Below are positions 24,997 through 44,353 of a DNA stretch of 64,000 bases, piece by piece. Position 1 is the stretch's first letter, and each line of letters starts with the position of its first letter. The notes under the pieces were generated by a model. The model saw nothing but the letters and a program-made list of their open reading frames with translations, did not search any database and was not told the origin of the DNA. This DNA comes from a virus. Location: IMG/VR virus record IMGVR_UViG_3300029319_007985, positions 1 to 64,000 of that record. One strand, written 5' to 3'. Made by a program: the position numbers and the translations under genes.

Positions 24997-25362
24997 TTAT
25001 TTTATTTGGACGGTTGCACCTTGTTCTATAAGTGCTTTCTTGATTTCTTCTGCTTCGCTTTTATCGATATCTTCTTTGACTGCTTTAGGTAGACCTTCGA
25101 CAAAGTTTTTGGCTTCTAATAGGCCAAGTCCAAGTATTTCTTTTACTTTCTTTAGAACAGAGATTTTTTTACCATCCTCAAATCCTGTTAGCACAACAGA
25201 GGCAGTAGATTTTGCTTCTGCTGGTGCCTCGGCTGTTGGAGCCGCAACCATGCCTGCTGTTGCTGTTACACCCCACTCTTTCTCTAATTTGTTTGCTAAA
25301 TCCGCCGCTTCTTGCAGAGTCAATTTGCCTAACTGTTCAACTAAAGCATTAATATCGGCCAT
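24997..25362 (-). CDS. rplL: 50S ribosomal protein bL12 (L7/L12)
   Basis: MADINALVEQLGKLTLQEAADL..EWGV, KKISVLKKV..LGLLEAK..VE..P, GATVQIK; start 25362 overlaps the upstream stop. Confidence 0.93.
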   Translation of the reverse strand: MADINALVEQLGKLTLQEAADLANKLEKEWGVTATAGMVAAPTAEAPAEAKSTASVVLTGFEDGKKISVLKKVKEILGLGLLEAKNFVEGLPKAVKEDIDKSEAEEIKKALIEQGATVQIK

Positions 25363-25487
25363 TATTTTCCTTTTCTGTGTCTGCCCATGTACCAATCTCC
25401 TGGCTCATAGTTCCATTTTTTACCATGATGCCCTCTGATATCAGCATACCACATTCTTAGTCTTACAATTAATCTTTTTAATAGCAT
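25362..25487 (-). CDS. 41-aa basic protein
   Basis: Not in the ORF track: MLLKRLIVRLRMWYADIRGHHGKKWNYEPGDWYMGRHRKGK; coupled to rplL (TAATG). Confidence 0.65.
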   Translation of the reverse strand: MLLKRLIVRLRMWYADIRGHHGKKWNYEPGDWYMGRHRKGK

Positions 25488-25496
25488 ATAACTAAT

Positions 25497-25760
25497 TTAT
25501 CTCGAAAGTTTCTTTTTACGTCCTAAAGGCACCTTGACCATTCTTGCAATCTTGTTACCTTTTCTGTTCGTGTATTCAACACTGACTTCAGTTGTTCCTT
25601 TTGGTAAGTTGCTCTGAACCGACTTTATGATCTTTTTAAAAGATAGGCCTTCCTTGGTCTCATCAAATTCCTTAAGATCAGTTATCCTTATTGATAATTT
25701 TCTTTTGCTTTTGGCGTCTATTAGTGGTTGAAATGCCTTGTTAATTAATTCTTGACTCAT
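25497..25760 (-). CDS. Basic hypothetical protein
   Basis: TTGACA-N17-TATAAT-N6-ATG (25795-25760). Confidence 0.7.
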   Translation of the reverse strand: MSQELINKAFQPLIDAKSKRKLSIRITDLKEFDETKEGLSFKKIIKSVQSNLPKGTTEVSVEYTNRKGNKIARMVKVPLGRKKKLSR

Positions 25761-25800
25761 GCTATCATTATATAGCAACCTATATTTTTTGTCAACTATG

Positions 25801-26004
25801 TTAGAAAGTCTTTTTGTAACGCCAAATGTCTATTTCGTTATTGTGGATATCTTCCAAGGCTTTCAATTTGTCCTCACAGTTGTTCCAATGTATCTTGTGT
25901 TCTAGCAGGTACGTGAGGCACTTCTTGTTAAAATTATCATAGGTAGGAGAACTGTGCTGTCCAGCACATGAAACTAATACTAAAAATAGTATTACCCAAC
26001 GCAT
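25801..26004 (-). CDS. Small putative lipoprotein
   Basis: Hydrophobic N-terminus with lipobox-like LVSC. Confidence 0.5.
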   Translation of the reverse strand: MRWVILFLVLVSCAGQHSSPTYDNFNKKCLTYLLEHKIHWNNCEDKLKALEDIHNNEIDIWRYKKTF

Positions 26005-26045
26005 AATACTAGTTTAATGATTGTGCCAATATAGTCAAGTTGTAT

Positions 26046-26074
26046 TTGACACTAAATTGGTAACAGTATATAAT
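26046..26074 (+). promoter_or_regulatory. Consensus sigma70 promoter of the tmRNA
   Basis: TTGACA-N17-TATAAT. Confidence 0.85.
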
Positions 26075-26080
26075 TAAAAC

Positions 26081-26382
26081 GTAGATGTTGAAGTTGGAAA
26101 ATAGTTTCGACGGACGTGGGTTCAATTCCCACCACCTCCACCATACTAGGATTGGTGGCTTATGTAATCCCTTTCGGGGGTGACCTGGAATCGACGTGTT
26201 ATGAAAGTCCAATGGAGTTTACGCAGTAGACACGAGCATACGTTCATGTTTTAAATGCAAACAGAAAAGCATTAAGATTTGCTGACTTGGTAGCAATGCC
26301 AACAAGCGGATCTGCATTGAGACTAGCGGCCTAGTCCACTAGACTCTGGGGTTGGCAACTTACCTAGCAACAGAAAAGTTGC
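26081..26382 (+). ncRNA. ssrA: Circularly permuted two-piece tmRNA
   Basis: The acceptor piece ends GTGGGTTCAATTCCCACCACCTCCACCA (CCA ends at 26143). Intervening segment 26144-26175. The coding piece starts GGGGGTG (26176), giving an acceptor stem with a G3-U pair. Tag frame 26257-26334 reads ANRKALRFADLVAMPTSGSALRLAA*. A 3' CCTAGCAACAGAA motif is present. Ends approximate. Confidence 0.93.
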
Positions 26383-26434
26383 GTCATCATAGTAGCACTT
26401 TTCTTTTTTTAATTAATATCTAAATAAACTTACT

Positions 26435-26707
26435 GTGTGGAAATATCAAAGACAAAACAGTCGTTCAAAATGGAACGAAGTAAGAAAAAAGGCACCAAAG
26501 GTTCCTGACATAACTTGTCCAGACATAGACGAGGTTATTAAAGTCATTGAGGCTCATTGGCACGACAAAAAAATCATGAGCAAAAGGACATATAATAAAC
26601 TCGAAAGAATAATGGAGAGGCTAAGAAACTCCAACGAAAAACTCAGAGATAGTGGCATTTTTTGGCATGATACTGCCAAAGAACTATGTAAGAAATACAT
26701 AGATTGA
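26435..26707 (+). CDS. Hypothetical phage protein
   Basis: KAPKVPDITCPDID; TAAATA upstream; GTG start uncertain. Confidence 0.6.
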   Translation: MWKYQRQNSRSKWNEVRKKAPKVPDITCPDIDEVIKVIEAHWHDKKIMSKRTYNKLERIMERLRNSNEKLRDSGIFWHDTAKELCKKYID

Positions 26708-26806
26708 CAAATATCCAAAAAGTGTTATAATAGTAAGTAATTTGAGAACATACTCTTTGAGTATAATATTCTCAACTTTAGGAAACAATAACACTAATGG
26801 ATATAC

Positions 26807-27907
26807 ATGACCGATAACAAAGTTAAAACTCTCAATCAAGTTGTTGAAGAATTCTACAAAGACGGAGAGGAAGAAGTCGCAAACTTCAAAACAAGAATAC
26901 AAACAGCCAAAGATAGACTCAAAGATTTACAACAAGATCAACAAATGCTACTGCCACAAGGCATTACGCAGGTAGAGATAAATGATGATCTGTGTTTCAA
27001 TTACAGTGTGCAGAGAGACTTAAGGCCATCCCATGTTGTAAGGATTTGTGAAAAATTTGATCCAAGAGTAGTAAGGCCAGCGTCTGCAGTGAAAAGAGAT
27101 GGCAAATACTATCTCTTTGACGGGCAACACACTTCTGTTGCTTTGGCAGTGCTAGGATATAAAGCGGTGCCAATGACCTGGGTTGAAACAGAGGCAAAGG
27201 CATTTGACGCCATAGCATTTGAAATACTCAACGATACAGGAATCTTACGGGCAGGCACAGAAGAAATACACAGAGGCCTCTTACATAGATGGCACACTGA
27301 CGAGAACGATCGTATGCAACCTAGGGTAAAAACTGCTTACACGGTGGACACACTTTTCAAAAAGTGCCAAATAGACCTAGAGCCAAAACGTGTCAGGAAG
27401 TCGCCAGGAAAATGTGGCCCTAATAAACATTACTTCTCACATTTTGATTATGCATATAAAGGAATTGACATGACTGGAAATGTAGAAGTTTTAGAAAACA
27501 TACTGAATGGAATCAAAACATTTTATGGCGATGAGGACGGTGGAGAAATCAATCAAGGTATCTATATAGGTTTGGTCAAAATGTACACTCTCGCAAAAGA
27601 AGATGGGTCAACCAAGTTCTTGCCAAAGGATTGGATTGAAAGAATACTATCCGCACTTATCAAAGTGTGTGGAAGAAATGCGCAGGGTATCCATTCCGCC
27701 AGCAAGAAACAATGGCAACACACACGAGGTACTAGTTGGGACGCACCAGTGGCCATGAGCACACTGATGCGTGAAGCATACCTACTACAGGCACCTGAAG
27801 AAGATCAGTTCAACCCACCACACGAACCAAAGGTTAATATGGGATTGATGCAAAATGACGTGTGTGCAGAATTCAAACCTTTTTATAAGAATGTTGCAAA
27901 GATATAA
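26807..27907 (+). CDS. ParB/DUF262-like N-terminal (DGQH) domain protein
   Basis: VQR.L...V..I...FD ... YLFDGQHT; promoter TTGACA(26704)-N16-TATAAT. Confidence 0.65.
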   Translation: MTDNKVKTLNQVVEEFYKDGEEEVANFKTRIQTAKDRLKDLQQDQQMLLPQGITQVEINDDLCFNYSVQRDLRPSHVVRICEKFDPRVVRPASAVKRDGKYYLFDGQHTSVALAVLGYKAVPMTWVETEAKAFDAIAFEILNDTGILRAGTEEIHRGLLHRWHTDENDRMQPRVKTAYTVDTLFKKCQIDLEPKRVRKSPGKCGPNKHYFSHFDYAYKGIDMTGNVEVLENILNGIKTFYGDEDGGEINQGIYIGLVKMYTLAKEDGSTKFLPKDWIERILSALIKVCGRNAQGIHSASKKQWQHTRGTSWDAPVAMSTLMREAYLLQAPEEDQFNPPHEPKVNMGLMQNDVCAEFKPFYKNVAKI

Positions 27908-28430
27908 AATACTTGACACAAAGGTCAAAGGCAAACTTACTATAAAATCAACCAAGACAAGTATTGAATCAGATTGTGCTATCCTTGACAAATTTAAAAG
28001 TGAACTGTTAAGTGAAAACACAGAAAGAGATGTCAAGGGCAAATACTTTTATTTCTTACAAAGATATCTTAGAGACACTCAGAAAGAAAAATGTAAGCCT
28101 CACCAGGCACATTACTACGCAGTGGATTTGCCAGATAAAAAACATTTAGAACATCCGATACCTCAGAACAGGATACTACAGGCCTACTTAGATGGAAATA
28201 TAAGTGCCTTAGAAGCAATCCATATGCCGTTATGTCTTTTAAGTGACTTTGACAAACACTATCTACAAGGAGAGTGGGAACAAAACGCGACCTGGGAACT
28301 GCCTTTCATGAGATATAAATTAGCCGGACTACGTGTGCCCATAAAAAATCTTAGAGGTGATTTAATAGATTTTACAAAATGGACTATCAAAGATCATTTT
28401 GAAATGTTAGGAATAGAAATAAAGGAGTAG
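27891..28430 (+). CDS. Possible HNH-like nuclease domain protein
   Basis: HLEHPIP ... PFMRYKLAGL; overlaps the upstream gene. Confidence 0.45.
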   Translation: MLQRYKILDTKVKGKLTIKSTKTSIESDCAILDKFKSELLSENTERDVKGKYFYFLQRYLRDTQKEKCKPHQAHYYAVDLPDKKHLEHPIPQNRILQAYLDGNISALEAIHMPLCLLSDFDKHYLQGEWEQNATWELPFMRYKLAGLRVPIKNLRGDLIDFTKWTIKDHFEMLGIEIKE

Positions 28431-28431
28431 T

Positions 28432-28590: not shown

Positions 28591-28625
28591 GTTGACTATT
28601 TCCAAGTTTATGCTATAATATGGTA

Positions 28626-28725: not shown

Positions 28726-28732
28726 ATAAATT

Positions 28733-29310: not shown

Positions 29311-29324
29311 AAATAAATATACTT

Positions 29325-29437: not shown

Positions 29438-29510
29438 TAGTTCAATTTAAATGATAGTGAGATTACCAAGTCATGTTGCTTGTAACCTTACTTTAGTGTA
29501 TAATTTAGAT

Positions 29511-30200: not shown

Positions 30201-30801
30201 AAAATTAATTGAAAGGTCTGATTTCAAAGATGGATTTTATAATAAACAACCTTTGCCGCAAAAGTATTTTAAATTTCCTCTCTGTAATATTAAAGATGAT
30301 CTTTATCCAAAAGAAAAAATAGAGTTGGATAATAATAAACACAAGCACAGCGGACCATCGTTTGATCAACAGAATGAATTAGGCCTGGACATACACAAAA
30401 GTTATGACCTGTCAGTCATTACAAAAGAGAGATACAAAACTCTATACGATTGGATGCATTCTTGGCATCTTAAAAATCCTATAGGACAGATCCATAATCA
30501 GCAACCAGGTCAAGCACACACATTTCATATGGATGTAATCAATAGTTATAACAATTATATTGCCGATCCCAAAGATAAAAAAACAAAAGTCAAACGTGTG
30601 TTTGTTTTCCTTAACGATTGGACAGCAGGCCAAGTGATAATGGCTGGCACAAAAATTATCACAGGCTGGAAAAAAGGTGACGTATTTTGGTTCGATTGGT
30701 ACCATGTGCCACATGGCACCGCCAATTTTAGCAGAACCAATAGAATGATGTTACAAATTACAGGAGAAACAACACCAGCCTTCGAAAAATTAATACTGTG
30801 A
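30184..30801 (+). CDS. 2OG-Fe(II) oxygenase/cupin-like protein, paralog B
   Basis: PGQAHTFHMD, PHGTANFS..R; strongly similar to the preceding gene. Confidence 0.7.
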   Translation: MQKTFEKLIERSDFKDGFYNKQPLPQKYFKFPLCNIKDDLYPKEKIELDNNKHKHSGPSFDQQNELGLDIHKSYDLSVITKERYKTLYDWMHSWHLKNPIGQIHNQQPGQAHTFHMDVINSYNNYIADPKDKKTKVKRVFVFLNDWTAGQVIMAGTKIITGWKKGDVFWFDWYHVPHGTANFSRTNRMMLQITGETTPAFEKLIL

Positions 30802-32138
30802 TTATGTTAGAACACTTACTGATTGTTATGGGTGGAATCCTTATTGGCACAGCCAGTGGCGTGTTGCCTGGAATAGGTACTACTATCGCGTTGATAGTAG
30901 CAACACCTGTGTTATTGCAGTTGGACATTATTCAATTATTTTTATTCTATATGGCAATACTAAGCACTGCGCAATTTACAGGCACCATCCCAAGTGTGTT
31001 TTTACAGGTGCCAGGTGAGGCAAATAGTTTACCCACAGTTGTAGAAGGATCAAAATTTAGAAAGAAAAATCTTAATAGCCTTGCCATAGGTCTATGTGCT
31101 GTAGGTAGTTTATTCGGAAGTTTAATTGCAGTTGTCATTACTTTCTTTGGTTTGCCATACGTTATAGATTTTTTCACAGTGTTTCTAAAAGACAGTTTTA
31201 AAATTGTTTTATATGCAGTGGTGCTATTGGCAAGCATTTTTGCTTTCAATAATAAAAGATATATTTTAAATTTTGCGTTACTTTCTATTGGCTACTTCTT
31301 ATCTATGATAGGTCCTGACCTACAAGGAGGCACATTCAGATACACATTTGGTATTGAAGCAATGGAGGAAGGCATTCCTTTTTATCCATTGATACTAGGA
31401 CTCATTGTTGCACCTGCGTTGTTCACGTCTGTGCATCGTGATATAAGATTAAGTTTTATTAAAGAAAAACTATCCTCATTTACACGGGTTTTCTTTTTAT
31501 TTCTAAGAAACATAGGTGCCAGCATAAGAGGGGCAGTGATAGGATTCTTTGCGGCGATGTCACCTGGCTTTGGCACACTCCTTAGCACCAATCTTTCATA
31601 TGCGGTTGAGTCAAAGTTAAACAAAAATTATCCTAGTAAAAAATTAGTGGCCGCCGAGACTGCTAACAACAGCGGTGGATTTGGAATGTTGTTACCTCTT
31701 GTGTTATTAGGCATACCTTTGACTTCAAGTGAATTTATTCTTTTCAACTATCTCATAGAAGCAGGATGGTCTCCGTATCAGTTTGAGAACCTGGAACAAA
31801 ATGGCCTTATGCTGATGCAAACTCTAGTGCCTTGGTTCGTTTTTATTAATTTTATAGCACTACTAATTGCATGGCCTCTTGCAAAGTTTATCATAGTCCT
31901 CATGCAAAAATTGAAAAAAGTTTTGAATATTTTTATTGCATTAGTGTGCTTTACCACTTGCGTGTACTTGGGTATTGACAACTATCAGTTAGTGTTTTAT
32001 ATTACATGTTTAGTTGTAGTTTCTTTAATTGCAATAAAATTTAAAGAGATCAATCTCATGCCGATTTTGTTCTCTTTTATATTAGGAAATGAATTAGAGT
32101 TCGTCATTTCCCGATACATCACATTATGGACTCATTAA
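30798..32138 (+). CDS. tctA: Second, divergent TctA permease
   Basis: GVLPGIG, QVPGEANS..T..EG, AAETANN, GIP. Confidence 0.8.
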   Translation: MIMLEHLLIVMGGILIGTASGVLPGIGTTIALIVATPVLLQLDIIQLFLFYMAILSTAQFTGTIPSVFLQVPGEANSLPTVVEGSKFRKKNLNSLAIGLCAVGSLFGSLIAVVITFFGLPYVIDFFTVFLKDSFKIVLYAVVLLASIFAFNNKRYILNFALLSIGYFLSMIGPDLQGGTFRYTFGIEAMEEGIPFYPLILGLIVAPALFTSVHRDIRLSFIKEKLSSFTRVFFLFLRNIGASIRGAVIGFFAAMSPGFGTLLSTNLSYAVESKLNKNYPSKKLVAAETANNSGGFGMLLPLVLLGIPLTSSEFILFNYLIEAGWSPYQFENLEQNGLMLMQTLVPWFVFINFIALLIAWPLAKFIIVLMQKLKKVLNIFIALVCFTTCVYLGIDNYQLVFYITCLVVVSLIAIKFKEINLMPILFSFILGNELEFVISRYITLWTH

Positions 32139-32156
32139 ACAAGGAGAAAGACTGAT

Positions 32157-32981
32157 ATGAAAAAAATATATCTTTTTTTATTATCTACAATTTTGTTAAT
32201 GACAAGTGCATTGGCAGAATCGATTACTGTTGTTCCAGGTGGTAAGCCGGGCGGGTCTAGTTTCGCCAGAGCAACAATGTATAAGGAAGTGCTAACAAAG
32301 ATGGGACACGATGTAAAGTTTGAAAACATAAGTTCCACCAAGGAGGGTGCAAAATATTTAGAAAAAACAAGGGGCAAGGAAACAGTAATAATGATGTACC
32401 CAACCAATCAACCTTCTCAGATTGGCTACGACATCACTGAAAACAACTTTGTGTTGAAAGAATATTTCGCTCCATACTTCTGGTGCCAATCAAATGAGGC
32501 CGTCAACAAAGACGTGTTTAAGGTTGGATTGGATAAAAACATGAACCAAAAGTTTTCTGATAAACTTTTTGGTACCTTGGGTAAAGAAGTAATCTATCTA
32601 AGATATAAAAACAGTGGTGCACTCTACAATGCCATTACGGCAGGAGACATAGATGCCATGTTTACTAACCAAGGTAAGTCACTTAAACTTGTGAAAAATA
32701 ACCAAGGGTCTTGCATTGCCAATACAAGCAGTGAAGTAATACATGACATACCATCTGTTTACACCATAGTTAAGGATGGAACAAAATTTCCTGTGATGGA
32801 ATACCCTGTTATTTCAAACAACACATCCGAAAAACTTAGAAGTATTCTTATTGAGGCAAACAAAGACGAATTATTTGTGCAATGGAGAGCAAGTAAAGGC
32901 CTGCCGGAGATAGTTGGTCAGGACACTCGACAAGAAGAACTTAGACTTGCCATGGAAGGGCAAGAACTTTGGAAACAGTAG
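32157..32981 (+). CDS. Second TctC-like substrate-binding protein
   Basis: Signal peptide; VVPGGKPGGS, YKNSG....AITAGDID. Confidence 0.6.
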   Translation: MKKIYLFLLSTILLMTSALAESITVVPGGKPGGSSFARATMYKEVLTKMGHDVKFENISSTKEGAKYLEKTRGKETVIMMYPTNQPSQIGYDITENNFVLKEYFAPYFWCQSNEAVNKDVFKVGLDKNMNQKFSDKLFGTLGKEVIYLRYKNSGALYNAITAGDIDAMFTNQGKSLKLVKNNQGSCIANTSSEVIHDIPSVYTIVKDGTKFPVMEYPVISNNTSEKLRSILIEANKDELFVQWRASKGLPEIVGQDTRQEELRLAMEGQELWKQ

Positions 32982-34096
32982 TATATGATTCTTATTATGA
33001 CGTTGGTGGAAATCAATTCGCCAACGTCTTCCAAGCACTAGATCACGCGAATCAGACTCAAAAATTTTGTTACTTCAATATTCACAAAGACTGGATCAAT
33101 GCATTGGAGCGGACATATTCATTACCAAAACCAAACAGGCAATCACTTCAAGTCCTATACTTAAAAAAATTAAAACATCTAAGACAAAACCATAATAAAC
33201 TTGTGCTCGCTTACAGTGGTGGCTCTGACAGTCATACCATACTAAAAATTGCAATCGATAATGACATTTATTTTGATGAAGTTATCATTGAATATCCTGG
33301 AGTAATGGAAGCGGCAAATGACCAAATCATCAACGCAGAACAAATCATGGCGCTTGAATTTGTAAACAGGCATATTGGAAAAAGTATAGGCAAGGTCACT
33401 GTTATCAAATGGACCGAGAAGGATTATGAATACTTAAACCATGCAGGTTGGTATAAAAATCCTAAATTTTATCAGCATAACAAAATTAAGGTTCGTCCTT
33501 GTGTTAAAGTGTATATGGCAAAACATTACAATGACCTAGATGGAGTAATAATTACCGGACACGAAAAACCAGGAGTACGATTTAAAAACAATAAATTTTA
33601 TTGGTTTGTGACTGACACAGGAACAACAGAACACAAAATTATAAGAAACTCATTTCCATTTTTTCTTGATCCGGAAATTGTTGTCTCATATGCATATGTG
33701 TTAAGAGATCAACTGAAAGGTAAACTAAATTATTTCACCCAAATAGGAGACAGATATGATTTCTTTTGGAAGATTCCTTTGGCGGAAACTAAAAAATTTT
33801 ATGAGTCATTAGGCTTGGAATTTATTAATCAAGAATCAGTTAAGTTTACTCAAAAGCCAAATTGGGGTACTCATCACAACTACAAGAATAAAGGCATAAT
33901 TGATTCATTAGAAAAATATGGACACAGGCAAATACTAGATAAAATTTTTAATTTACACGAACATATTAATAATGAATACAAAAACACTAATCATGCTGTG
34001 CAGTCAGATGGAACATTTGTTAAAACAGTCGAACGTTATTCTCAGATGTTTGAATATGTAGAAAATACATTGATTTGTAGAGGGCATGACGTATAA
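32969..34096 (+). CDS. PP-loop (adenine nucleotide alpha hydrolase) ATPase-like protein
   Basis: LAYSGGSDSH; ITGHEKP. Confidence 0.65.
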   Translation: METVVYDSYYDVGGNQFANVFQALDHANQTQKFCYFNIHKDWINALERTYSLPKPNRQSLQVLYLKKLKHLRQNHNKLVLAYSGGSDSHTILKIAIDNDIYFDEVIIEYPGVMEAANDQIINAEQIMALEFVNRHIGKSIGKVTVIKWTEKDYEYLNHAGWYKNPKFYQHNKIKVRPCVKVYMAKHYNDLDGVIITGHEKPGVRFKNNKFYWFVTDTGTTEHKIIRNSFPFFLDPEIVVSYAYVLRDQLKGKLNYFTQIGDRYDFFWKIPLAETKKFYESLGLEFINQESVKFTQKPNWGTHHNYKNKGIIDSLEKYGHRQILDKIFNLHEHINNEYKNTNHAVQSDGTFVKTVERYSQMFEYVENTLICRGHDV

Positions 34097-34172
34097 CCGT
34101 TGGAAATTGGAAATTATTACCACTTGACACAATACCAAATCGTGTTATAATAATGGTAACTTAGGAGAATAT

Positions 34173-34523
34173 ATGTATAAATGTTCAGCACAAGCACAGT
34201 TGGTTTTGGATCAAGTGACTGCAAGATGTCAAAAAGATACTGAAACTAAAAATACTTGGACAGGTAAAAGTGGGAAATACATGTTTATCATGGGCAGAGA
34301 AAATGCTGATGGTAAGGCAACTGGTGTGGTACACAAATATCAACCAGATGGCTCACACAAATTAGCCGGTTCATTTAAAATACTTGCTGATGGTATCATC
34401 ACAAGATTTACTGGTTTATCAAAAGCAGATTGGAACAACTACATGAATTCTGCAGAAGCAGAATACAAAAAGTCGTTGACTAATGCTGGAGAAGACAATA
34501 AACTAGAAACTAAAGTAGCATAA
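34173..34523 (+). CDS. Hypothetical early protein
   Basis: TTGACA(34124)-N16-TATAAT promoter; AGGAG SD; GRENADGKATG motif. Confidence 0.7.
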   Translation: MYKCSAQAQLVLDQVTARCQKDTETKNTWTGKSGKYMFIMGRENADGKATGVVHKYQPDGSHKLAGSFKILADGIITRFTGLSKADWNNYMNSAEAEYKKSLTNAGEDNKLETKVA

Positions 34524-34530
34524 ACAAAAC

Positions 34531-34548
34531 GGTGCCCTTCGGGGCACC
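34531..34548 (+). other. C(UUCG)G tetraloop hairpin (terminator or stabiliser)
   Basis: GGTGCCC-TTCG-GGGCACC; common in T4-like phage intergenic regions. Confidence 0.7.
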
Positions 34549-34558
34549 AAATAACAAT

Positions 34559-35215
34559 ATGGAAAATTGGGAGAGGCATCTAAATAGAATTTGGAACGGT
34601 GGTAAACTGTTCATCATTGGTGCAGTGGTTTTATTCATTACATTTACTTTGGGCACATTTAAACCGAACAAACATGTAGTAAACAACATAAAACTTGATC
34701 AAGAACAAAAAACAATTAATAACCTTAAAAAATTTGGTTTACATGCACCTTTGTTTAAATTTAAAAATACAAAACAGTTTGTTGAAAACGTTCAAAACTG
34801 TGTAAACTACTTGAACCTTACAACTGAAGTCCATAAAAGAATACCTGACAAAATAATAATTGCAATGGCCGATGTGGAAAGTGCAAGTGGCACTAGTCGT
34901 TTTGCAACTGAAGGAAACGCCTTGTTTGGTGTTAGAACTTGGGACCTAGTAAACGTTCCACACATGAAACCTGGTGCAATACCAAATGCAAGTTTTGGTG
35001 TGAAGAAGTATAAGAATAAATGTGCCAGTGTTGCAGATGTAATAGACATATTAAACAGGCATCCTGCTTACAAAGATTTTAGGGCAGAAAGAAACAAACA
35101 ACTTAAAGACGCATATTGGGACTATAAGAAACTGGTTCCTTTACTTGCACCATGGAGCACCAACCCTGAGTACGGTAATATCATTCTGAGAAGAATGAAA
35201 GAGTTGAAATTGTAG
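34559..35215 (+). CDS. Membrane-anchored glucosaminidase (GH73/Bax-like)
   Basis: N-terminal TM; [36 protein letters not shown]. Confidence 0.8.
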
Positions 35216-35231
35216 TAAAATAAGTACTACG

Positions 35232-36665
35232 ATGCAGGACGTACTTCAAAAAACACTAGATAAAAAATACCAAGCAGGGTTTACCACCAATGTGGAGTCG
35301 GAAACTTTACCACCAGGTCTAGATGAAAATACAGTAAGAAAGATTAGCAAGATCAAAAATGAACCGGAGTGGTTGCTAAAGTTTAGATTGAAAGCATTTG
35401 ACAGGTGGAAAATTTTAAAAAAGCCTGATTGGGCAAATTTAGAAATAGAACCAATAGACTATCAAGCAATTAGTTACTATTCAGCACCAAAAAAAGGACC
35501 AGCATCATACGATGAAGTTGATCCAGAGATCAAAAAGGACTTTGAAAAATTAGGAATACCTCTCCATGAAAGAGAAAAACTAGCAGGGGTGGCGGTAGAT
35601 GCAGTTTTTGATTCTGTGTCTGTGGCTACAACGTTTTCAGAAGAATTGAAAAAATTAGGTATAATCTTCTGCAGTTTTAGTGAAGCGGTACAGAACCATC
35701 CTGAACTTGTGAAAAAGTATTTGGGTTCGGTTATTCCAATCAGTGACCATAGTTTTGCGGCCTTGAACAGTGCAGTATTTACAGATGGATCATTTGTGTA
35801 TATTCCACCAGGTGTGAGATGTCCTATGGAACTGTCAACGTATTTTAGAATAAATGCGGCCAACACTGGACAATTTGAACGAACACTTATAATAGCAGAT
35901 CGAGACAGTTATGTAAGTTATCTAGAAGGATGTACAGCACCTATGAGAGATGAGAACCAATTACATGCGGCCAATGTGGAACTGGTTGCTTTGGACAACG
36001 CAGAAATAAAGTATTCAACCATACAGAATTGGTATCCAGGAGATCCTGAAACAGGCAAGGGTGGTATCTATAACTTTGTTACAAAAAGGGGAAAATGTAT
36101 TGGAAAGCATTCAAAGATTACATGGACCCAATTTGAAACAGGTTCGAGATTAACTTGGAAATATCCAAGTTGTATTTTGATGGGTGACAACAGCATTGGT
36201 GAATTTTACAGTGTGGCTCTTACTAATGGCCGACAACAGGCCGACACAGGAACCAAAATGATACACATAGGTAAAAACACTAAAAGCACAATCATATCAA
36301 AAGGCATTAGTGCAGGTAAAAGTTCCAACACATATCGAGGACAGGTCAGCATAATGAAGAGGGCAATTAACAGTAGAAACTTCACTCAGTGTGATAGTTT
36401 GATGATGGGATCCGGATGTAGTGCTTCAACTGTGCCTGTGATACAAAATAGGAATAGCAGTTCAACCTGCGAACACGAAGCCACCACTAGCAAATTAAGT
36501 GATGAACAGATGTTTTACTGTATGCAGAGAGGCATACCAACCGAAGACACAATCAATATGTTGGTCAGTGGATTTTGTAAAGAAGTTTTCCAGAAACTAC
36601 CAATGGAGTTTGCCGCGGAGGCAAATAAACTACTAGAAATTAGTATGGAAGGTTCCGTAGGCTAA
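35232..36665 (+). CDS. sufB: Fe-S cluster assembly protein SufB
   Basis: [54 protein letters not shown]. Confidence 0.97.
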
Positions 36666-39074: not shown

Positions 39075-39110
39075 ATAGTTCTAGTATAAATAATAGCAAG
39101 GAATTTACAA

Positions 39111-39820: not shown

Positions 39821-41590
39821 ATGTTTATAGCAATTCTTACACTTTTATCTGCATTATCCATCTCGGGTGTTGCAATTTTCTATTCTGTGATAGGACTCGC
39901 CACAATCTTCCCTGGAGCATTTTGGCCTGTGGTTATAATGGGGTCAGTTCTTGAGGTTGGAAAATTAATTACAGCCAGTTGGCTATATCGGCAATGGAAG
40001 TTTACACCATTCCTTCTCAAAACTTATCTTACTATTGCGGTCATAATACTGTCAATAATAACTTCAATGGGTATTTTTGGATTCTTATCTAAGGCACACC
40101 TTGAACAAAACTTAGCCAGTGATACCTTGGTGCAAAGGGTTGATATTATTAACGACAAGATAGAAAGCCAGACTATCTATATTGAAAGGCAAAAGGCAGT
40201 CATCACACGTTCTGAAAAAGCAATTGATCGAACAGGAAAAGATTTCACACAGGACATTGCGGTGCAGGAAAACATTATCAATTCTGCCTATCTAAGACTA
40301 CAAGTGCTTGACGCAGACGTAAAGGCATACACAGATCAAGGAAAAGGTTTTTGGAAGGGTGACAACATTGCCAAAGGTGTGGAACTAAGGAAACAACAAA
40401 AACCTGAACGTGATCAACTAAATGCAGAAATAAAAGAGGCCAAGGCAAAGATAGAGAAATATAGGAATGAAGGCAGGATCGCAGGAGATAATAACAAAAC
40501 TACAATTAAAGAAGCAGAAGAAAATATCATAGTTGCCCAAAATAAGATTGATGATCTTATTATCGAAAGACAGCCGTTAGAAAAAAAATTAATTAATTTA
40601 GAGGCAGAAGTAGGTCCAGTGAAATACATAGCCGCTCTTGCGGTTGACTGGGGGTTTGCCGAAGAAGTAAATTTATCCAAAGCAGTAAGATGGGTGATAT
40701 TGATTATAATTGTTGTTTTTGATCCACTTGCAGTTTTACTTTTAATTGCCGCGAACCAAAGTCTGGTTAGAAGATTTCCTGTTAAACCACCTAAGCCTCA
40801 AGAGATTATAGACTTGGAAAAACCAGATGATGAAAGTATTATTCTAAAATGGAGAGAAATGGCGGAGCAGGCTAGTAAAAAAAACGCCCAAGAAAAACAA
40901 ATCAAAATTAAACAGCAAGTAGATGAATGGCAACAAAAACTTAAAAAATTTAATGAAAAGGCTCCAAAACCAGAAGACAAGCCTGTAGAAGTTATAGTTG
41001 AGCAACCAAAGAAAGAACCGACTAAGGAACAAAAAATAGAGGCCTTTGATGAAAGATTGAGAGCAGAAGAGGCAGAACTTGAAAGAGTCGCGGCAGAAAC
41101 AAAAGCAGATATTGAGAGGATAGAAGAAACTAGCAAACCAGTTGAAGACTATAATTTTGAAGATGAAATAAAATATGATGTAGACACAGAAGTTAAAAAA
41201 ACAGACGAAGAGCCAGGCATAGCCAAGCAGATAGAAAAGGCAATGGAAGGTGTACAAGCAAGAATAAAGCCTGACTTTACAGAAGTGATAGAGCCTGAAA
41301 GCCAAATTAAAAAACCAAAAGTGGGTGCCCTAGGCACAGTGTTGGTTGATAAAGGCAAGGTGATTAAACAACAACCTGCTTACACACAAAACTCTGAGCA
41401 AAATGAATCTGGTAACTGGAGTAAGATTAACGAAAAGCGTCTTATTGACGAAGAGACATATAGACAAAAAATTGAATCAAGAATAAATGATTTAATCATC
41501 AAAGTAAAAACTGGAGAAATGAAATTGGAAGACCTTGCCGAGGAAGATCAAAAATTAGTCAAACAAGCGATGGATAATGGAAACGACTAG
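39821..41590 (+). CDS. Membrane protein with periplasmic coiled coil and charged tail
   Basis: 3 N-terminal TMs (LEVGK, TSMGIFGFLSKAH), EVGPVKY, VFDPLAVLL TM. Confidence 0.7.
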   Translation: MFIAILTLLSALSISGVAIFYSVIGLATIFPGAFWPVVIMGSVLEVGKLITASWLYRQWKFTPFLLKTYLTIAVIILSIITSMGIFGFLSKAHLEQNLASDTLVQRVDIINDKIESQTIYIERQKAVITRSEKAIDRTGKDFTQDIAVQENIINSAYLRLQVLDADVKAYTDQGKGFWKGDNIAKGVELRKQQKPERDQLNAEIKEAKAKIEKYRNEGRIAGDNNKTTIKEAEENIIVAQNKIDDLIIERQPLEKKLINLEAEVGPVKYIAALAVDWGFAEEVNLSKAVRWVILIIIVVFDPLAVLLLIAANQSLVRRFPVKPPKPQEIIDLEKPDDESIILKWREMAEQASKKNAQEKQIKIKQQVDEWQQKLKKFNEKAPKPEDKPVEVIVEQPKKEPTKEQKIEAFDERLRAEEAELERVAAETKADIERIEETSKPVEDYNFEDEIKYDVDTEVKKTDEEPGIAKQIEKAMEGVQARIKPDFTEVIEPESQIKKPKVGALGTVLVDKGKVIKQQPAYTQNSEQNESGNWSKINEKRLIDEETYRQKIESRINDLIIKVKTGEMKLEDLAEEDQKLVKQAMDNGND

Positions 41591-41891
41591 ACTAGGCAAA
41601 CTGACTTTGGTTACACCACCCAGTATCTTAGAAGATAACAAAAACAGTTTTTGTATAATAAACTTCAAAACAGAAGATCAAGACAAGTTTGCCAATTATC
41701 TAAACAGGCATCTAGCAAATGATGATGTTGTTGTTTACGTTGTAGACAGTGCCAAGGACACTGAATTAACTTTGCCATGGTTGACAAACATACTAGAAAA
41801 GTCTAAAACTGTTATAGTTAAATCACAAAATAATTTTAAAGTTTTGAAAAACGAAACAATAATTGACTTGGAGGCGATATTCAATGAGTGA
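41577..41891 (+). CDS. Hypothetical protein
   Basis: ORF overlapping both neighbours. Confidence 0.6.
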
Positions 41892-43146
41892 TACAGATCA
41901 AAATCTTAATTGTTCTTTCTGTGGTAAGGGCAGGAAAGATGTCTCAAAAATGATCGTTGGTGCTGATAAAGTTACAATTTGTAATGAGTGTATAAAATTA
42001 TGCACAGAGATCATTGTGGAGGATAACCAAAAGGTTAGCAGTGAGCAAATCAAAACTGGTGAGAAACAAAATTTAAATCCTGTGGACATAAAAGAATATC
42101 TTGATCAATATGTTGTTGGGCAAGACTCTGCAAAAACTGTTCTTAGTGTTGCTGTGTCTAATCACTATAAAAGAATTTTAAATCCACCAAAGGACTTTGA
42201 ATTAGAAAAATCAAACGTTCTTATACTTGGTGCAAGTGGTTCCGGAAAAACACTTATGGCACGAACCATTGCCAAATATTTGGATGTGCCTTTTGCTATG
42301 GCAGATGCTACAAGTTTGACCGAGGCTGGATATGTTGGTGATGACGTTGAAAATGTAATCACTAAACTTTATCAAAACGCCAAGGGAGACAAATACATGA
42401 CTGAAAGAGGCATTGTGTTCATAGACGAAATTGATAAAATTTGTAAGAAATCAGAAAGCACCAGTATAACCAGAGACGTATCCGGAGAAGGAGTTCAACA
42501 AGGTTTACTTAAAATAGTCGAGGGCACAATTTGTAGGGTTCCACCACACGGAGGAAGGAAACACCCTGAACATCAACACGTTGAGATCGACACCTCAAAC
42601 ATTTTGTTTGTCGTTGGTGGTGCTTTTACAGACCTGGAACGACAAATTAAATCTAGAAAAAGCACAGGAATGGGTTTTAACTCTGAATTGATATCAAGCG
42701 AACAAAAAAACTACTTGGCAGAATCTCAACCAGAGGACCTAATTAAATTTGGACTGATACCGGAGTTTGTTGGCAGATTTAGTATGCTTACTCACGTGGA
42801 TCCATTGACAGAACTTCAATTAGTAAAAGTTTTAAATGAACCAAAAAATAGTTTACTGAAACAATATTCCTACTTGTTTAGTCTTGATCATATTAATTTA
42901 GAGATAGACAAAAAGGCCCAGTTGGCTGTTGCTAAAAAGGCTAAAAAATTAGGCACAAATGCAAGAGGATTAAGAAACATCTTGGATACTCTTCTCCTGC
43001 CTTACCAGTTTGACTCTGCTGAGATGCATAAAAAAGGAGTCACAAAAGTATCAATCACAGAAGAGTGTGTTGACAAAAACCAAGATCCTGTGTTACATTT
43101 TAAAACACCGGTAAACGAAATGAAAAAACAAAAGGCGAAAAATTAA
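41884..43146 (+). CDS. clpX: ATP-dependent Clp protease ATPase ClpX
   Basis: CSFC/CNEC zinc finger, [40 protein letters not shown] loop. Confidence 0.97.
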
Positions 43147-43376
43147 TGGCATACTACGTGGATGTTACAAAATCTGGCGGAGATGCTGTTCGAGCCTATA
43201 GAAAAATCAAAAGAAAGATCAAACAAGACAGGTTCATTGAGGAACTACGTGATAGACAATATTACCGTAAACCTTCCGAATTAAAACGTGAGAAACAAAA
43301 GAGAGCACGTATCACAATAAAGAGAAACCAAGCCAAAAGTAATTGGGCAGATCCAAGTAAAGTAAGACAAAGATAA
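43146..43376 (+). CDS. rpsU: 30S ribosomal protein bS21
   Basis: A.RK.KRK......EL..RQYY.KPSE.KR; coupled to clpX. Confidence 0.85.
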   Translation: MAYYVDVTKSGGDAVRAYRKIKRKIKQDRFIEELRDRQYYRKPSELKREKQKRARITIKRNQAKSNWADPSKVRQR

Positions 43377-43443
43377 TTGGTAAAATAGGTCGTAATCCTA
43401 AAATTAATGACTATATGTATAGTGTAGGTGATAAATATCTACA

Positions 43444-43505
43444 TACGATGCTAATAGATAGGTCGTACAAAAACTTAACTCGCTTAACAATAGGAGGCAA
43501 AGCAC
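43444..43505 (+). promoter_or_regulatory. ROSE-like RNA thermometer leader of hsp20
   Basis: CTCGCT (43479-84) can pair with the SD AGGAG (43492-96) with a bulged G; upstream TACGAT/GTCGTA hairpin; TAAATA at 43432. Confidence 0.55.
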
Positions 43506-43961
43506 ATGACAAACAATAAAGCACTATCTATCTTTAATCAATTAAGACCCGTAACTGTTGGGTTTGATAACGTATTCGATCATTTCGAAAGAATGTTTGA
43601 AGACGATTTTTTCAGATTGCCAACAACTTCAAACTTCCCACCTTACAACATTGTAAAGACTGGGACAAACACTTATGACGTTGAACTTGCAGTAGCAGGT
43701 TTCGGTAAAGACGACATAGAAGTGCAGTATGAAGACAACATGTTGACTGTGAAGTCCAAAAAGTCTGATAAGTCAGAAGAAAAGGACGAGGACGGAAACG
43801 TTATCCACAGAGGAATTTCCAAAAGATTTTTCTCAAAATCATTCACGATAGCGGATGATGTGGAGATCAAGGGCGCCGAATTGAAAGATGGTTTATTGAA
43901 GGTTTCTATGGAAAGAATTGTTCCAGAAGCCAAAAAAGCAAGAACTATCGACATCAAATAA
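43506..43961 (+). CDS. Small heat-shock protein Hsp20 (IbpA-like)
   Basis: GFD, FPPYNI, ELAVAGF, HRGIS.R.F...F, A.LKDGLL, PE.KK.R.I.I. Confidence 0.95.
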   Translation: MTNNKALSIFNQLRPVTVGFDNVFDHFERMFEDDFFRLPTTSNFPPYNIVKTGTNTYDVELAVAGFGKDDIEVQYEDNMLTVKSKKSDKSEEKDEDGNVIHRGISKRFFSKSFTIADDVEIKGAELKDGLLKVSMERIVPEAKKARTIDIK

Positions 43962-43973
43962 GGCAACAATAGA

Positions 43974-44005
43974 TAGGGCGGTGGTCACATCGCCCTACTT
44001 AATTC
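43974..44005 (+). terminator. Terminator hairpin after hsp20
   Basis: TAGGGCGGTG-GTCA-CATCGCCCTA with a weak U tract. Confidence 0.6.
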
Positions 44006-44041
44006 AATAGACATATGTTTTAAATATGTTATAATTGGAGT

Positions 44042-44353
44042 ATGGCAATGGCAGATTTAGGTGTTAAAACACTAACAAAAGACAAACTAGAATTAAAAGA
44101 ACCAGACAAATACGATGTGGTATTCGTTAATGATGATGTGACCACTGTAGAATTTGTTATTAAAGTTCTAAAAAATATATTTCATAAAACAACAGAACAA
44201 GCAGTTGCATTAACAACACACATTCACGAAAAAGGCAAAGGTGTTGTTGGCACATACCTGTACGAAATTGCAGAACAAAAAGGTATAGAAACAACTGTCC
44301 TTGCCAGAGACGAAGGATATCCATTACAGGTAAAAGTTCAAAGGCACGGTTAA
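44042..44353 (+). CDS. clpS: ClpS N-degron adaptor
   Basis: Y.VVFVNDDVTTVEFVI.VL..IF, IHEKGKGVVG.Y.YEIAE.K, GYPL. Confidence 0.93.
   Translation: MAMADLGVKTLTKDKLELKEPDKYDVVFVNDDVTTVEFVIKVLKNIFHKTTEQAVALTTHIHEKGKGVVGTYLYEIAEQKGIETTVLARDEGYPLQVKVQRHG

Follow-up and report, generated by a model that had tools for sequence, protein, structure and literature searches.

Translation-rescue, Clp and chaperone genes in a marine jumbo phage related to the Rak2/Atu_ph07-like group

Gene content of the window and the rplL/tmRNA region

The DNA analyzed here (the window) comprises the initial 64 kb of IMGVR_UViG_3300029319_007985, an IMG/VR phage record of 172 kb and ∼47% completeness. Two blocks were of interest, one with rplL (bL12) and a tmRNA gene, and the other with clpX, rpsU (bS21), hsp20, and clpS. 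All six elements, which a preliminary description of the sequence had located here, were confirmed by profile scores and ARAGORN and are intact and under purifying selection. Where synonymous change is unsaturated, dN/dS of the block genes is 0.04–0.22, resembling DNA polymerase and RNR, and by this measure the genes look functional. In four marine metatranscriptome studies there are contigs that match rplL, the tmRNA, and clpX-rpsU-hsp20-clpS with 0–8 differences, although these may include DNA carry-over. The preliminary description had treated positions 24997–44353 as one kit, a view that does not hold because ∼15 kb of unrelated genes (a TctA transporter, SufB, a glucosaminidase, and ORFans) split the two blocks.

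The blocks are flanked by phage genes, specifically a T4-type family B DNA polymerase, 42–49% identical to its nearest homologs, which are from jumbo phages, and an Mtd_N-domain protein that resembles a tail fibre. This marine phage is akin to the Rak2/Atu_ph07-like jumbo phages; its closest cultured relatives are the Rak2-like Agrobacterium phage Atu_ph07 and Sinorhizobium phage Phosso (DNA polymerase 44.5% and 49% identical; ClpX ∼49%). All the block genes are typical of cells, as would be expected if cellular DNA had been mis-assembled or mis-binned into the viral record; however, the flanking phage genes, the recurrence of the gene order in cultured phages as well as across numerous independent viral contigs, and a ClpX just ∼50% identical to that of any of the very diverse bacteria sampled make such an artefact extremely improbable.

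The rplL gene (24997..25362, minus strand) encodes a full-length bL12 with a dimerisation domain, hinge, and C-terminal domain; the ORF is listed as 24997–25395(−), but translation probably begins at the ATG at 25362, which has AAGGA upstream. The protein matched PF16320 and PF00542 (84.1 bits for the L12 C-terminal domain, 49.9 bits for the N-terminal domain) and TIGR00855 (112 bits; cut-off 84). Its position is conserved, with identities of 78–86% in the related contigs L085–L087 and 53–56% in the related record G005 and dN/dS of 0.05–0.19, and the gene is sporadic in the family (5/24 related records). The first gene of its transcription unit is a small basic ORF (25497..25760, minus strand) with no match in Pfam, PHROG, or NCBIfam, conserved in L085 and L086 (87% identity) and G005 (78%). 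A sigma-70 promoter for the unit (TTGACA-17-TATAAT; 25767..25795, minus strand; 12/12 match) is predicted from the consensus alone; the ATG of the small ORF follows 6 nt after the −10 hexamer, and this ORF is probably leaderless.

The tmRNA gene (26081..26425, plus strand) is of the two-piece, circularly permuted type, as identified by ARAGORN and the Rfam models tmRNA_permuted (RF04321; 87.1 bits, gathering threshold 47, at 26081–26289) and alpha_tmRNA (RF01849; 60.7 bits). The 3′ acceptor/T-arm piece ends with CCA at 26143, the 5′ acceptor strand begins at 26176, and the tag frame spans 26257–26334, encoding, according to ARAGORN, a long, basic tag of 25 residues that ends in LAA. The acceptor stem has seven pairs, of which the third, counted from the 5′ end, is G-U, and it is unchanged across five phage copies; compensatory changes were found at 29/62 predicted pairs. 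A second predicted sigma-70 consensus promoter (26046..26074, plus strand; 12/12 match) would start the precursor at ∼26081, which fits the start of the tmRNA_permuted match. Contrary to what had been described, rplL and ssrA are not immediate neighbors; they are divergent, ∼720 bp apart, with the small basic ORF between them.

The consensus early promoters of the tmRNA gene and of the rplL unit would suit a role in counter-defence, in which the tmRNA and ribosomal proteins mend translation after host abortive-infection nucleases or toxins cut tRNAs, mRNAs, or ribosomes, and the Clp parts destroy defence proteins; what else speaks for it is the general expectation for jumbo phages. However, neither block was found to adjoin a defence or anti-defence gene, and the clpX island described below is conserved in phages with probably very different hosts, which argues for a general housekeeping role, so we regard counter-defence as improbable.

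The clpX-rpsU-hsp20-clpS island

The second block is headed, here and in all lineages, by a gene for a conserved membrane and coiled-coil protein (39821..41590, plus strand), in which hydrophobic sequence at the N-terminal end and around residue 290 is in each case followed by charged sequence rich in K/E. This protein has no family match in Pfam, PHROG, or NCBIfam, and its nearest ESM Atlas clusters are hypothetical proteins from viruses only; the gene lies upstream of clpX or rpsU in 41/80 viral ClpS loci and in the related records G001, G004, and G005. A small, weakly conserved ORF (41577..41891, plus strand; 37% identity over 51 residues and dN/dS of 0.66 in G005) overlaps both of its neighbors, the clpX start by 8 nt.

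The clpX gene (41884..43146, plus strand; listed as 41863–43146, with the true start at the ATG at 41884) encodes an AAA+ unfoldase with a zinc finger and AAA_2 domain, which scored above the cut-off of two NCBIfam ClpX equivalogs (531 bits, cut-off 359; and 500 bits) and 420 bits against a solved ClpX, and is 65% identical in G005. The four zinc-finger cysteines, Walker A and B motifs, GYVG pore loop, RKH loop, and sensor-2 arginine are kept, and MGF occupies the position of the IGF ClpP-docking loop. Its stop overlaps the start of rpsU (43146..43376, plus strand) as TAATG. The divergent bS21 passes its models narrowly (PF01165, 31.7 bits, cut-off 27; TIGR00030, 32.7 bits, cut-off 28.95). Next, hsp20 (43506..43961, plus strand) encodes a small heat-shock protein with an alpha-crystallin domain (PF00011, 71.2 bits) that scored 99 bits against an IbpA-like NCBIfam model, short of the equivalog cut-off, and has dN/dS of 0.11–0.12; a G+C-rich hairpin lies 3′ of it at 43976–43995.

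The last gene, clpS (44042..44353, plus strand), encodes a putative ClpA adaptor for N-degron substrates (PF02617, 95.3 bits; below the NCBIfam equivalog cut-off, at 81 bits against 149). The N-D-D and histidine pocket residues align with those of the solved Caulobacter crescentus ClpS, whereas the gatekeeper methionine is replaced by valine, found in only one other of the viral copies compared, nearly all of which have methionine. A candidate sigma-70-like promoter (11/12; 44008–44035) ends 6 nt upstream of the clpS ATG, and motifs of the TAAATA late type lie ahead of both hsp20 and the clpX operon. Since the two window blocks are 15 kb apart and differ in promoter type, sigma-70 consensus for rplL/tmRNA versus TAAATA late-type for the island, their co-regulation is unlikely.

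Most of the 80 related viral contigs show this island order, as do G001 and G004, with dnaK, clpP, or an exoribonuclease as variable members. At the 80 viral ClpS loci, the accompanying genes encode Hsp20 (75, in each case immediately upstream of clpS), S21 (49), DnaK (43), ClpX (18), and ClpP (13), and S21 follows clpX or precedes dnaK in 17/24 related records. Co-occurrence in relatives, which the preliminary description had put forward as a check, was found: G005, which is collinear with the window, retains rplL, tmRNA, clpX, rpsU, hsp20, and clpS in order at 51–73% identity, and the distant 239-kb G001 has the tmRNA, clpX, rpsU, hsp20, clpS, and clpA. The permuted tmRNA itself occurs in 8/24 related records; because rplL is sporadic and many clpX-bearing fragments are without a tmRNA, a link from tag to ClpX is not obligatory.

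ClpA, accessory chaperones, and the missing cores

Of the genes reported as missing, clpP, clpA, and smpB are all absent from the window, but clpA is encoded elsewhere in the same phage, at record positions 104554–106860. Its product is below the NCBIfam equivalog cut-off (882 bits against 993), keeps the ClpP-docking loop as LGF, and is 80% identical in G008. This gene ends a dnaJ…def-clpA run that, together with groES, lies outside the window; the identities of DnaJ, PDF, and GroES were confirmed. A model of ClpS with the N-domain of the phage ClpA passed, scoring 0.87 against 0.00 for the best of three controls; the mark concerned was reached by 58/80 solved complexes and 2/110 mismatched pairs. 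Contacts agreed between runs at ≥93%, the partner pLDDT was ≥85, and the modeled interface falls on an invariant ClpS stretch (residues 72–82); the model is a likeness to the solved Escherichia coli complex, not a sign of binding.

Contrary to the earlier claim, the set is not self-contained. ClpP, SmpB, and SspB were not found in the window or in the whole 172-kb record, nor were DnaK, GroEL, Lon, and FtsH found in the record. ClpP, SmpB, DnaK, GroEL, Lon, and FtsH were likewise not found in the close relatives G005–G008, of which G006 extends ∼84 kb past the end of the record, so that ∼256 kb of sequence from the lineage, with about half of the genome unseen, contains none of them. The lineage thus has DnaJ without DnaK and GroES without GroEL, an accessory part without its core, and other genes follow clpS where sister lineages have clpP. 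These absences are what would be expected if the phage supplied only the specificity parts (tag, unfoldases, adaptor, and swappable ribosomal proteins), parasitized the host ClpP, SmpB, ribosome, DnaK, and GroEL, and so redirected translation and degradation. However, the record is incomplete, clpA is encoded by the phage itself, and DnaK and GroEL occur in 6/24 and 1/24 related records, respectively. Moreover, because ClpP, often next to or near clpS, is encoded by 13/35 related records and also by two cultured relatives that share the block, Pseudomonas phage vB_PaeM_PA5oct and Vibrio phage 2.275.O, borrowing of the host core is not a design principle of the family. For SmpB, absent from 24/24 related records searched, the claim of borrowing is supported; for the other cores it is possible but unproven, and the reading as a whole is doubtful.

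Its second element, reprogrammed specificity, is hinted at solely by the ClpS valine gatekeeper and by the long, basic tag. The LAA end would be readable by ClpX, which retains its RKH and GYVG loops; an ordinary tag end and ordinary RKH and GYVG loops give no pointer to a private tag-reader pair.

The apparent lack of ClpP in the lineage would also be compatible with ClpX, ClpA, Hsp20, DnaJ, and GroES acting mainly to unfold, hold, and assemble virion and cargo proteins of very large size, without proteolysis, a role earlier suggested for jumbo-phage ClpA and ClpX (PMC7824862). The presence of GroES and DnaJ and the TAAATA late-type motifs fit such a role, as does bS21, which in other phages is late-expressed alongside structural genes (PMC9723584). 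However, ClpS is a degradation adaptor, clpP lies directly 3′ of clpS in relatives, and a tag ending in LAA is a degradation signal. ClpP-docking tripeptide loops, which have no known role other than ClpP binding, are retained in both ClpX and ClpA, and chaperoning without proteolysis is therefore unlikely.

Inherited modules and their relation to known systems

We consider it likely that these genes are inherited working modules of a large marine jumbo-phage family, kin of the Rak2, Atu_ph07, and PA5oct group, rather than one purpose-built kit, and that the modules are probably three: the clpX-rpsU-hsp20-clpS island, the divergent rplL/tmRNA pair, and the dnaJ…def-clpA run with groES. Annotated versions of this block exist already in cultured giant phages, which encode the ClpP core as well, and pieces of it have been treated before (PMC6102473; PMC7824862; PMC9723584; PMC9004378). 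In PA5oct (MK797984; complete, 287 kb, Arenbergviridae), EST35_0255 to 0260 are annotated ClpX, S21, heat-shock protein, and ClpS in that order; clpX and rpsU overlap there as well, and a ClpA-like gene is present. PA5oct differs in encoding ClpP 7.5 kb downstream, and FtsH, in two additional small ORFs between S21 and Hsp20, in having no tmRNA scoring above threshold, and in a ClpS ∼35% identical to that of the window over half the protein. Atu_ph07 is reported to encode ClpX, ClpA, ClpB, ClpP, and ClpS (PMC6102473) and Hsp20 (PMC7824862), but its Clp genes, ClpP and ClpB included, are scattered, and PMC6102473 describes no link of them to S21, L12, or tmRNA. In the marine Vibrio phage 2.275.O._10N.286.54.E11 (349 kb), genes for IF3, RpsU3 (S21), and a ClpS-like adaptor adjoin and ClpA is present, whereas it has at least two ClpP genes and IF3, and neither ClpX nor Hsp20 is annotated in the IF3-RpsU3-ClpS cluster.

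The analysis shows the identity of the genes, their intact motifs, and their conservation, synteny, and selection; under the inherited-module interpretation, each biochemical step, as well as when the genes are expressed and where ClpP comes from, is inferred. The tmRNA, charged with alanine, would act with host SmpB and EF-Tu to release ribosomes stalled on broken messages, appending the long tag with its LAA end, and phage ClpX would read this terminus by means of the RKH and pore loops. Phage ClpS would dock on the ClpA N-domain and deliver N-degron substrates. As both unfoldases keep ClpP-docking loops, ClpX and ClpA would pass substrates to a ClpP ring, either the host’s or one whose gene lies in the half of the genome not yet sequenced. 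Hsp20, DnaJ, and GroES may hold and fold proteins together with host partners, and bS21 and bL12 may swap into host ribosomes. Overall, translation capacity and amino-acid supply would thereby stay high in a long, protein-expensive infection. The parts and diagnostic motifs are those of bacterial ssrA-SmpB/ClpXP/ClpAPS (E. coli, Caulobacter), but in this phage no SmpB, no SspB, and (so far) no ClpP has been seen, and the genes lie in a phage-specific island with rpsU and hsp20.

Circularly permuted, alpha-type ssrA with an early promoter is also found in marine myophages, namely OM43 phage Melnitz and pelagimyophages, for which upkeep of hijacked machinery or tagging of host proteins for recycling was proposed (PMC9004378). 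The window tmRNA differs in being paired with rplL and in its tag of 25 residues; it has no detectable nucleotide similarity to any tmRNA of the GenBank phage set, and at Rfam gathering thresholds the window yielded no glutamine riboswitch. The two ribosomal proteins are the commonest in viruses, and when expressed in E. coli both were found in its ribosomes (PMC6375957; PMC9723584). In cultivated phages, bL12 was reported only from genomes <80 kb and often as a domain of a larger protein (Mizuno et al., 2019; PMC6375957), whereas the window bL12 is full-length, two-domain, and encoded by a jumbo phage; the window S21 is ∼37% identical to pelagiphage S21.

Order and content of the clpX-rpsU-hsp20-clpS island

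All of the elements named in the preliminary description were present in the window, namely rplL, a two-piece tmRNA, clpX, rpsU, hsp20, and clpS, with family profiles, Rfam, and motifs in agreement. The observation was confirmed, and its interpretation, in which the phage supplies the specificity-determining parts of a translation-rescue and proteolysis kit and borrows the cores from its host, was partly supported. To place the island among related viruses, its gene content was surveyed in the 80 best of at least 594 viral contigs containing a ClpS relative. Within these 80, hsp20 lay immediately upstream of clpS in 75, and S21 was found in 49, dnaK in 43, clpX in 18, and clpP in 13. A single arrangement held throughout: membrane protein, clpX (where present), rpsU, dnaK (where present), hsp20, clpS, and then, in some, an exoribonuclease or clpP. 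This island order, fixed across many ocean phages, is a contribution of this window. The constant first gene, also in distant phage lineages, is ORF39821 (39821-41590), encoding 589 residues with hydrophobic stretches at the N-terminus and around residue 290, which are separated and followed by charged, K/E-rich stretches; neither ORF39821 nor ORF41577 belonged to a family in Pfam, PHROG, or NCBIfam, and the ESM Atlas neighbors of the former were virus-only hypothetical proteins. A homolog of the Rv2179c-like 3′-5′ exoribonuclease was present within 53 of the 80 ClpS loci, mostly immediately 3′ of clpS, and that of this phage has been relocated about 24 kb from the clpS locus, to record positions 68096-68620 (L131:4096-4620), outside the window.

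Individual relatives preserved the island to different extents. The 46.7-kb contig G005, with a mean protein identity of 56%, was collinear with the window, its genes likewise running from rplL through the small ORF, tmRNA, SufB, the membrane protein, clpX, rpsU, hsp20, clpS, and glutaredoxin to thyX. On one strand of the distant record G001 (239 kb), positions 30461-36506 contained eight genes, among them the membrane protein, clpX, rpsU, hsp20, clpS, and two copies of clpP, and clpA and a permuted tmRNA were also encoded by G001. In record G004, clpX, rpsU, dnaK, hsp20, and clpS followed one another, and a pair of clpP genes lay 7-10 kb farther on. A lineage-specific insertion of rpsU, suggested by tblastn with the divergent S21 of the window, which had missed distant copies, was overturned by Pfam and added queries. 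From Pseudomonas phage PA5oct to uncultured ocean phages, rpsU sits within an island of chaperone and protease-adaptor genes (clpX, rpsU, sometimes dnaK, hsp20, clpS). That a gene for a ribosomal protein so stably occupies the place between those for an unfoldase and a chaperone is the single feature meriting experiment, for which PA5oct is tractable and cultured.

The same block is already annotated in the complete genome of PA5oct, where ClpX overlaps S21 and is followed by two small ORFs, a heat-shock protein, and ClpS; PA5oct also has FtsH, a ClpA-like gene, and its own ClpP 7.5 kb downstream of the block. The marine Vibrio phage 2.275.O has IF3, S21, and a ClpS-like gene in series, along with ClpA and two or more ClpP genes. 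ClpX, ClpA, ClpB, ClpP, and ClpS are reported to be encoded by Atu_ph07 (PMC6102473), as is Hsp20 (PMC7824862), and ClpS, ClpP, ClpA, ClpX, and Hsp20 have been described in jumbo phages (Iyer et al., PMC7824862). The commonest neighbors of phage bS21 include Hsp20 and Clp genes (Chen et al., PMC9723584). With the block annotated in cultured phages and its parts covered in several papers, the novelty is modest.

The ClpX protein contained an N-terminal C4 zinc-binding domain (PF06689, 52.1 bits) and a single AAA+ module (PF07724, 108.1 bits), and scored above both equivalog cut-offs (NF003745, 531 bits, cut-off 359; TIGR00382, 500 bits, cut-off 371). The Walker A and B motifs, GYVG pore-1 loop, RKH loop, and sensor-2 Arg were all present in alignment with the solved ClpX 9ndj_F, and the four zinc-finger cysteines were retained. 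In ClpX proteins generally, the RKH and pore loops are the elements by which the LAA end of ssrA tags is read. The gene begins at ATG 41884, preceded by GGAGG, and overlaps the stop of a preceding small ORF by 8 nt; it also overlaps rpsU, with the clpX stop and rpsU start having one base in common (TAATG). The bS21 assignment was marginal, just above both cut-offs (PF01165, 31.7 bits, cut-off 27; TIGR00030, 32.7 bits, cut-off 28.95), and the bS21 proteins of relatives scored 42-62 bits. Virus-encoded bS21 and bL12 have been shown to be taken up into the ribosomes of E. coli, with entry into the 30S subunit reported only for the bS21 of pelagiphage HTVC008M, in E. coli (Mizuno et al., PMC6375957).

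The Hsp20 protein had an alpha-crystallin domain (PF00011, 71.2 bits, cut-off 20.8) and scored too low for an equivalog of IbpA or IbpB (99 bits vs. a cut-off of 212). The spacers flanking its gene (43377-43505 and 43962-44041) contained repeated ATAGGTCGTA-like words and a TAAATA motif, and a G+C-rich hairpin lay 3′ of hsp20 at 43976-43995.

ClpS was recognized by PF02617 (95.3 bits, cut-off 23), with its best NCBIfam equivalog at 80.6 bits, below the cut-off of 149. The Asn-Asp-Asp and His of the N-degron pocket were kept, but the gatekeeper Met was replaced by Val, a substitution found only in this phage and one relative, nearly all other compared viral copies having Met. Replacement of the gatekeeper Met by Ala broadens ClpS specificity toward beta-branched N-termini. 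The Val gatekeeper is new from this window, and an altered N-degron preference is possible. A tblastn search of GenBank phages with ClpS gave no match at E 1e-5 and, at E 1, only weak similarity (30-35%) to ClpS proteins annotated in jumbo phages; therefore, ClpS of this type is well represented in metagenomic contigs only.

The rplL-tmRNA pair

The rplL gene is located on the minus strand at 24997-25395, with a probable start at ATG 25362 and AAGGA upstream. Its product contained both the N-terminal dimerization and uL10-binding domain (PF16320, 49.9 bits) and the C-terminal factor-binding domain (PF00542, 84.1 bits), joined by a hinge, and exceeded the NCBIfam equivalog cut-off (TIGR00855, 112 bits vs. 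84), with residues 12-132 aligned to profile positions 1-125. The nearby tmRNA is two-piece and circularly permuted: a 3′ acceptor and T-arm piece with an encoded CCA, ending at 26143, precedes the 5′ acceptor strand, which begins at 26176. It matched the whole of the RF04321 tmRNA_permuted model at 87.1 bits and RF01849 alpha_tmRNA at 60.7 bits. The tag frame (26257-26334) was free of internal stops and encoded 25 residues, beginning with Ala-Asn and ending with Leu-Ala-Ala; the G005 tag has 22 residues and likewise ends in LAA.

Comparison of five phage tmRNAs, a small sample, identified double compensatory changes at 29 of 62 predicted pairs, including changes of this kind in the T-stems. 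The seven pairs of the acceptor stem were invariant in all five, and the third of them, G-U, occupies what we take to be the site of the G3-U70 alanine identity pair; this U-G pair occupies alignment columns 92 and 147. In the G005 tmRNA (23802-24169; L242:3802-4169), GGCAGTA replaces the usual TTCAATT-type T-loop, and this T-loop also appeared in the loose ends of metatranscriptome contigs, so the variant occurs in ocean RNA libraries.

As for co-occurrence of the kit in relatives, G005 kept all six elements in order, but rplL was present in only 5 and the permuted tmRNA in only 8 of 24 related records. Pairing of rplL with tmRNA recurred in the related viral locus L085 as well as in L088 and L089, which are more distant, and a full-length bL12 paired with tmRNA is an addition of this window to prior knowledge. 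A blastn search of GenBank phages with the tmRNA returned just two short, chance-like matches, and RF00023 matches in PA5oct and Vibrio phage 2.275.O were sub-threshold (14-22 bits over 76-90 bases) and are probably tRNAs. In G001, ARAGORN missed the tmRNA that was detected by Rfam. Two-piece tmRNAs have been described in marine myophages, with proposed roles in the upkeep of hijacked machinery and in the tagging of host proteins for recycling (Buchholz et al., PMC9004378).

Phage ClpA and possible borrowing of host cores

The preliminary description found no clpA in the window; the gene lies outside it, at record positions 104554-106860, preceded by genes for peptide deformylase (def, 104054-104557) and DnaJ (dnaJ, 102577-103428). 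This run (102577-106860) and groES (93043-93489), also outside the window, are covered by the record parts L132 and L133. The 768-residue product contained a Clp_N domain, two AAA+ modules, and a D2-small domain in Pfam, without the middle domain of ClpB and ClpC, and aligned with E. coli ClpA end to end (669 bits, residues 7-750 on 5-745). It fell under the NCBIfam equivalog cut-off (TIGR02639, 882 bits vs. 993) and scored far lower with the ClpB model (671 bits), and is classed from its sequence as a divergent ClpA-type protein; clpA was 80% identical in the close relative G008.

Because the phage encodes ClpA, its ClpS has a predicted partner of phage origin. For jumbo phages, phage ClpS has been proposed to deliver targets to host ClpAP (Iyer et al., PMC7824862). 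ClpS modeled together with the N-domain of ClpA scored 0.87, whereas the highest-scoring of three controls gave 0.00; 58 of 80 solved complexes attained this mark, as did 2 of 110 mismatched pairs. A ClpS-ClpA complex from E. coli is already solved, so the score indicates likeness rather than binding and may derive from that known structure. The runs had at least 93% contact agreement and partner pLDDT of at least 85, and the modeled interface fell on a stretch of ClpS that was invariant in twelve viral copies.

The proteolytic core is less easily assigned. An MGF in the phage ClpX aligned with the IGF loop by which E. coli ClpX docks to ClpP, its G and F being invariant in four phage ClpX proteins, and an LGF in ClpA aligned with the IGL ClpP-docking loop of E. 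coli ClpA. These tripeptide loops are not known to have a role except ClpP docking, and since they are kept, both unfoldases look made to feed a ClpP ring. The search of the rest of the record, about 47% complete, identified no ClpP, SmpB, or SspB domain in its entire 172 kb, and ClpP, SmpB, DnaK, GroEL, Lon, and FtsH were likewise found neither there nor in the close relatives G005-G008. One of these, G006, reaches about 84 kb past the 3′ end of the record, which brings the sequence searched to about 256 kb, out of a genome estimated at 350 kb.

The idea that host cores are borrowed was best sustained for SmpB. Because SmpB was absent from all 24 related records (∼2.3 Mb in all), dependence of the tmRNA on host SmpB is well supported, and host SmpB would be required for its action. 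As for ClpP, its gene was present in 13 of 35 related fragments and in both cultured relatives with the island block. Either clpP (and dnaK) was lost from the island and that of the host is used, or clpP is located elsewhere, about 100 kb of the phage being unseen; use of host ClpP by this lineage is plausible, although we lean slightly against it. The ClpP, DnaK, and GroEL genes carried by sister lineages appear to have been lost from one lineage, and this lineage, which seems to lack the cores, is an addition of this window. More broadly, a fixed proteostasis island is inherited in a widespread family of ocean jumbo phages, some lineages of which have tmRNA and bL12 in addition, and lineages with and without phage ClpP offer a natural comparison of how much host quality control a phage must own.

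Expression, phage lineage, and neighboring genes

Purifying selection was assessed by dN/dS, which was 0.04-0.22 for rplL, hsp20, clpS, and clpA, with synonymous sites unsaturated, and 0.05-0.06 for DNA polymerase and RNR, used for comparison; clpX and rpsU gave pN/pS of 0.31-0.35 with saturated synonymous sites. Marine metatranscriptome contigs from four studies matched rplL, tmRNA, and clpX/rpsU/hsp20/clpS with 0-8 differences, and DNA carry-over is possible; as contigs rather than reads, they are silent on transcription, strand, ends, level, and processing, and uncovered stretches are uninformative.

Two perfect TTGACA-17-TATAAT promoters (12/12, by sequence match) were arranged back to back between rplL and the tmRNA, one on the minus strand (25767-25795), 6 nt upstream of the ATG of a small ORF ahead of rplL, and one on the plus strand (26046-26074), in a position that fits a tmRNA start at about 26081. 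A third perfect 12/12 sigma-70 consensus was located at 26704-26731, all three being inside 1 kb. Host-type promoters like those of the tmRNA/rplL pair also preceded groES and dnaJ, and clpS had its own sigma-70-like promoter (11/12), ending 6 nt ahead of its ATG. For the three perfect promoters, the ATG or RNA start, where checked, fell 6 nt past the -10 hexamer, a spacing that implies leaderless messages. A TAAATA late-type motif, by contrast in type, preceded hsp20 and the membrane-protein gene heading the clpX-rpsU operon. Given these different promoter types, the elements of the supposed kit probably differ in expression time.

The position of rpsU in the island may mean a coupling in which the phage Clp machinery strips host bS21, and perhaps bL12, from ribosomes, the selector being ClpS or ClpX; we consider this reading very improbable. 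Under such a coupling, phage bS21 and bL12 would replace the removed host copies, in this lineage by way of host ClpP, and the outcome would be phage-specialized ribosomes, possibly favoring the many leaderless phage messages.

The 64-kb window has 38% G+C and is the opening part of an IMG/VR record of 172,389 bases, classed as linear, with a CheckV completeness of about 47%. Its family B DNA polymerase was nearest to those of Sinorhizobium phage Phosso (49%) and Agrobacterium phage Atu_ph07 (44.5%), followed by Rak2-like jumbo phages (about 42%), and had relatives in >300 IMG/VR stretches, the best 80 with 81-96% identity. The CheckV completeness of related fragments, all in agreement, gave a full genome of ∼350 kb; thus, this is an abundant, uncultured marine jumbo phage with about half of its genome in hand. 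No host signal was obtained from ClpX, as the 80 best bacterial matches listed were all 47-53% identical and from unrelated phyla. Identity of ∼50% was shared alike with very diverse bacteria, Atu_ph07, and Phosso, and clpX is, as judged from such comparisons, an old phage gene rather than a recent capture. The tmRNA is of the alpha type, and the type of a phage tmRNA may differ from the class of its host, as described for Melnitz (PMC9004378). There were no tRNA genes in the 172-kb record; the distant G001 contained an array of 27 tRNAs (60.8-87.6 kb) near its tmRNA.

A full-length SufB for Fe-S cluster assembly (35232-36665) was 65% identical to the sufB product of Microcystis phage MaAM05 and 79% to that in G005; no SufC or SufD partner was recognized, because the ORF after sufB was without a Pfam match. 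Two membrane subunits of TctA-family tripartite tricarboxylate transporters were encoded at 4593-6029 and 30798-32138, the second followed by a weak solute-binding-like ORF. Finally, a cobalamin riboswitch of the AdoCbl-II type (84.3 bits in Rfam) was located directly before a phage TonB-dependent receptor gene with Plug and barrel domains (47330-49262), in a layout resembling the bacterial btuB leader, and ThyX and a B12-binding radical SAM gene come after them.
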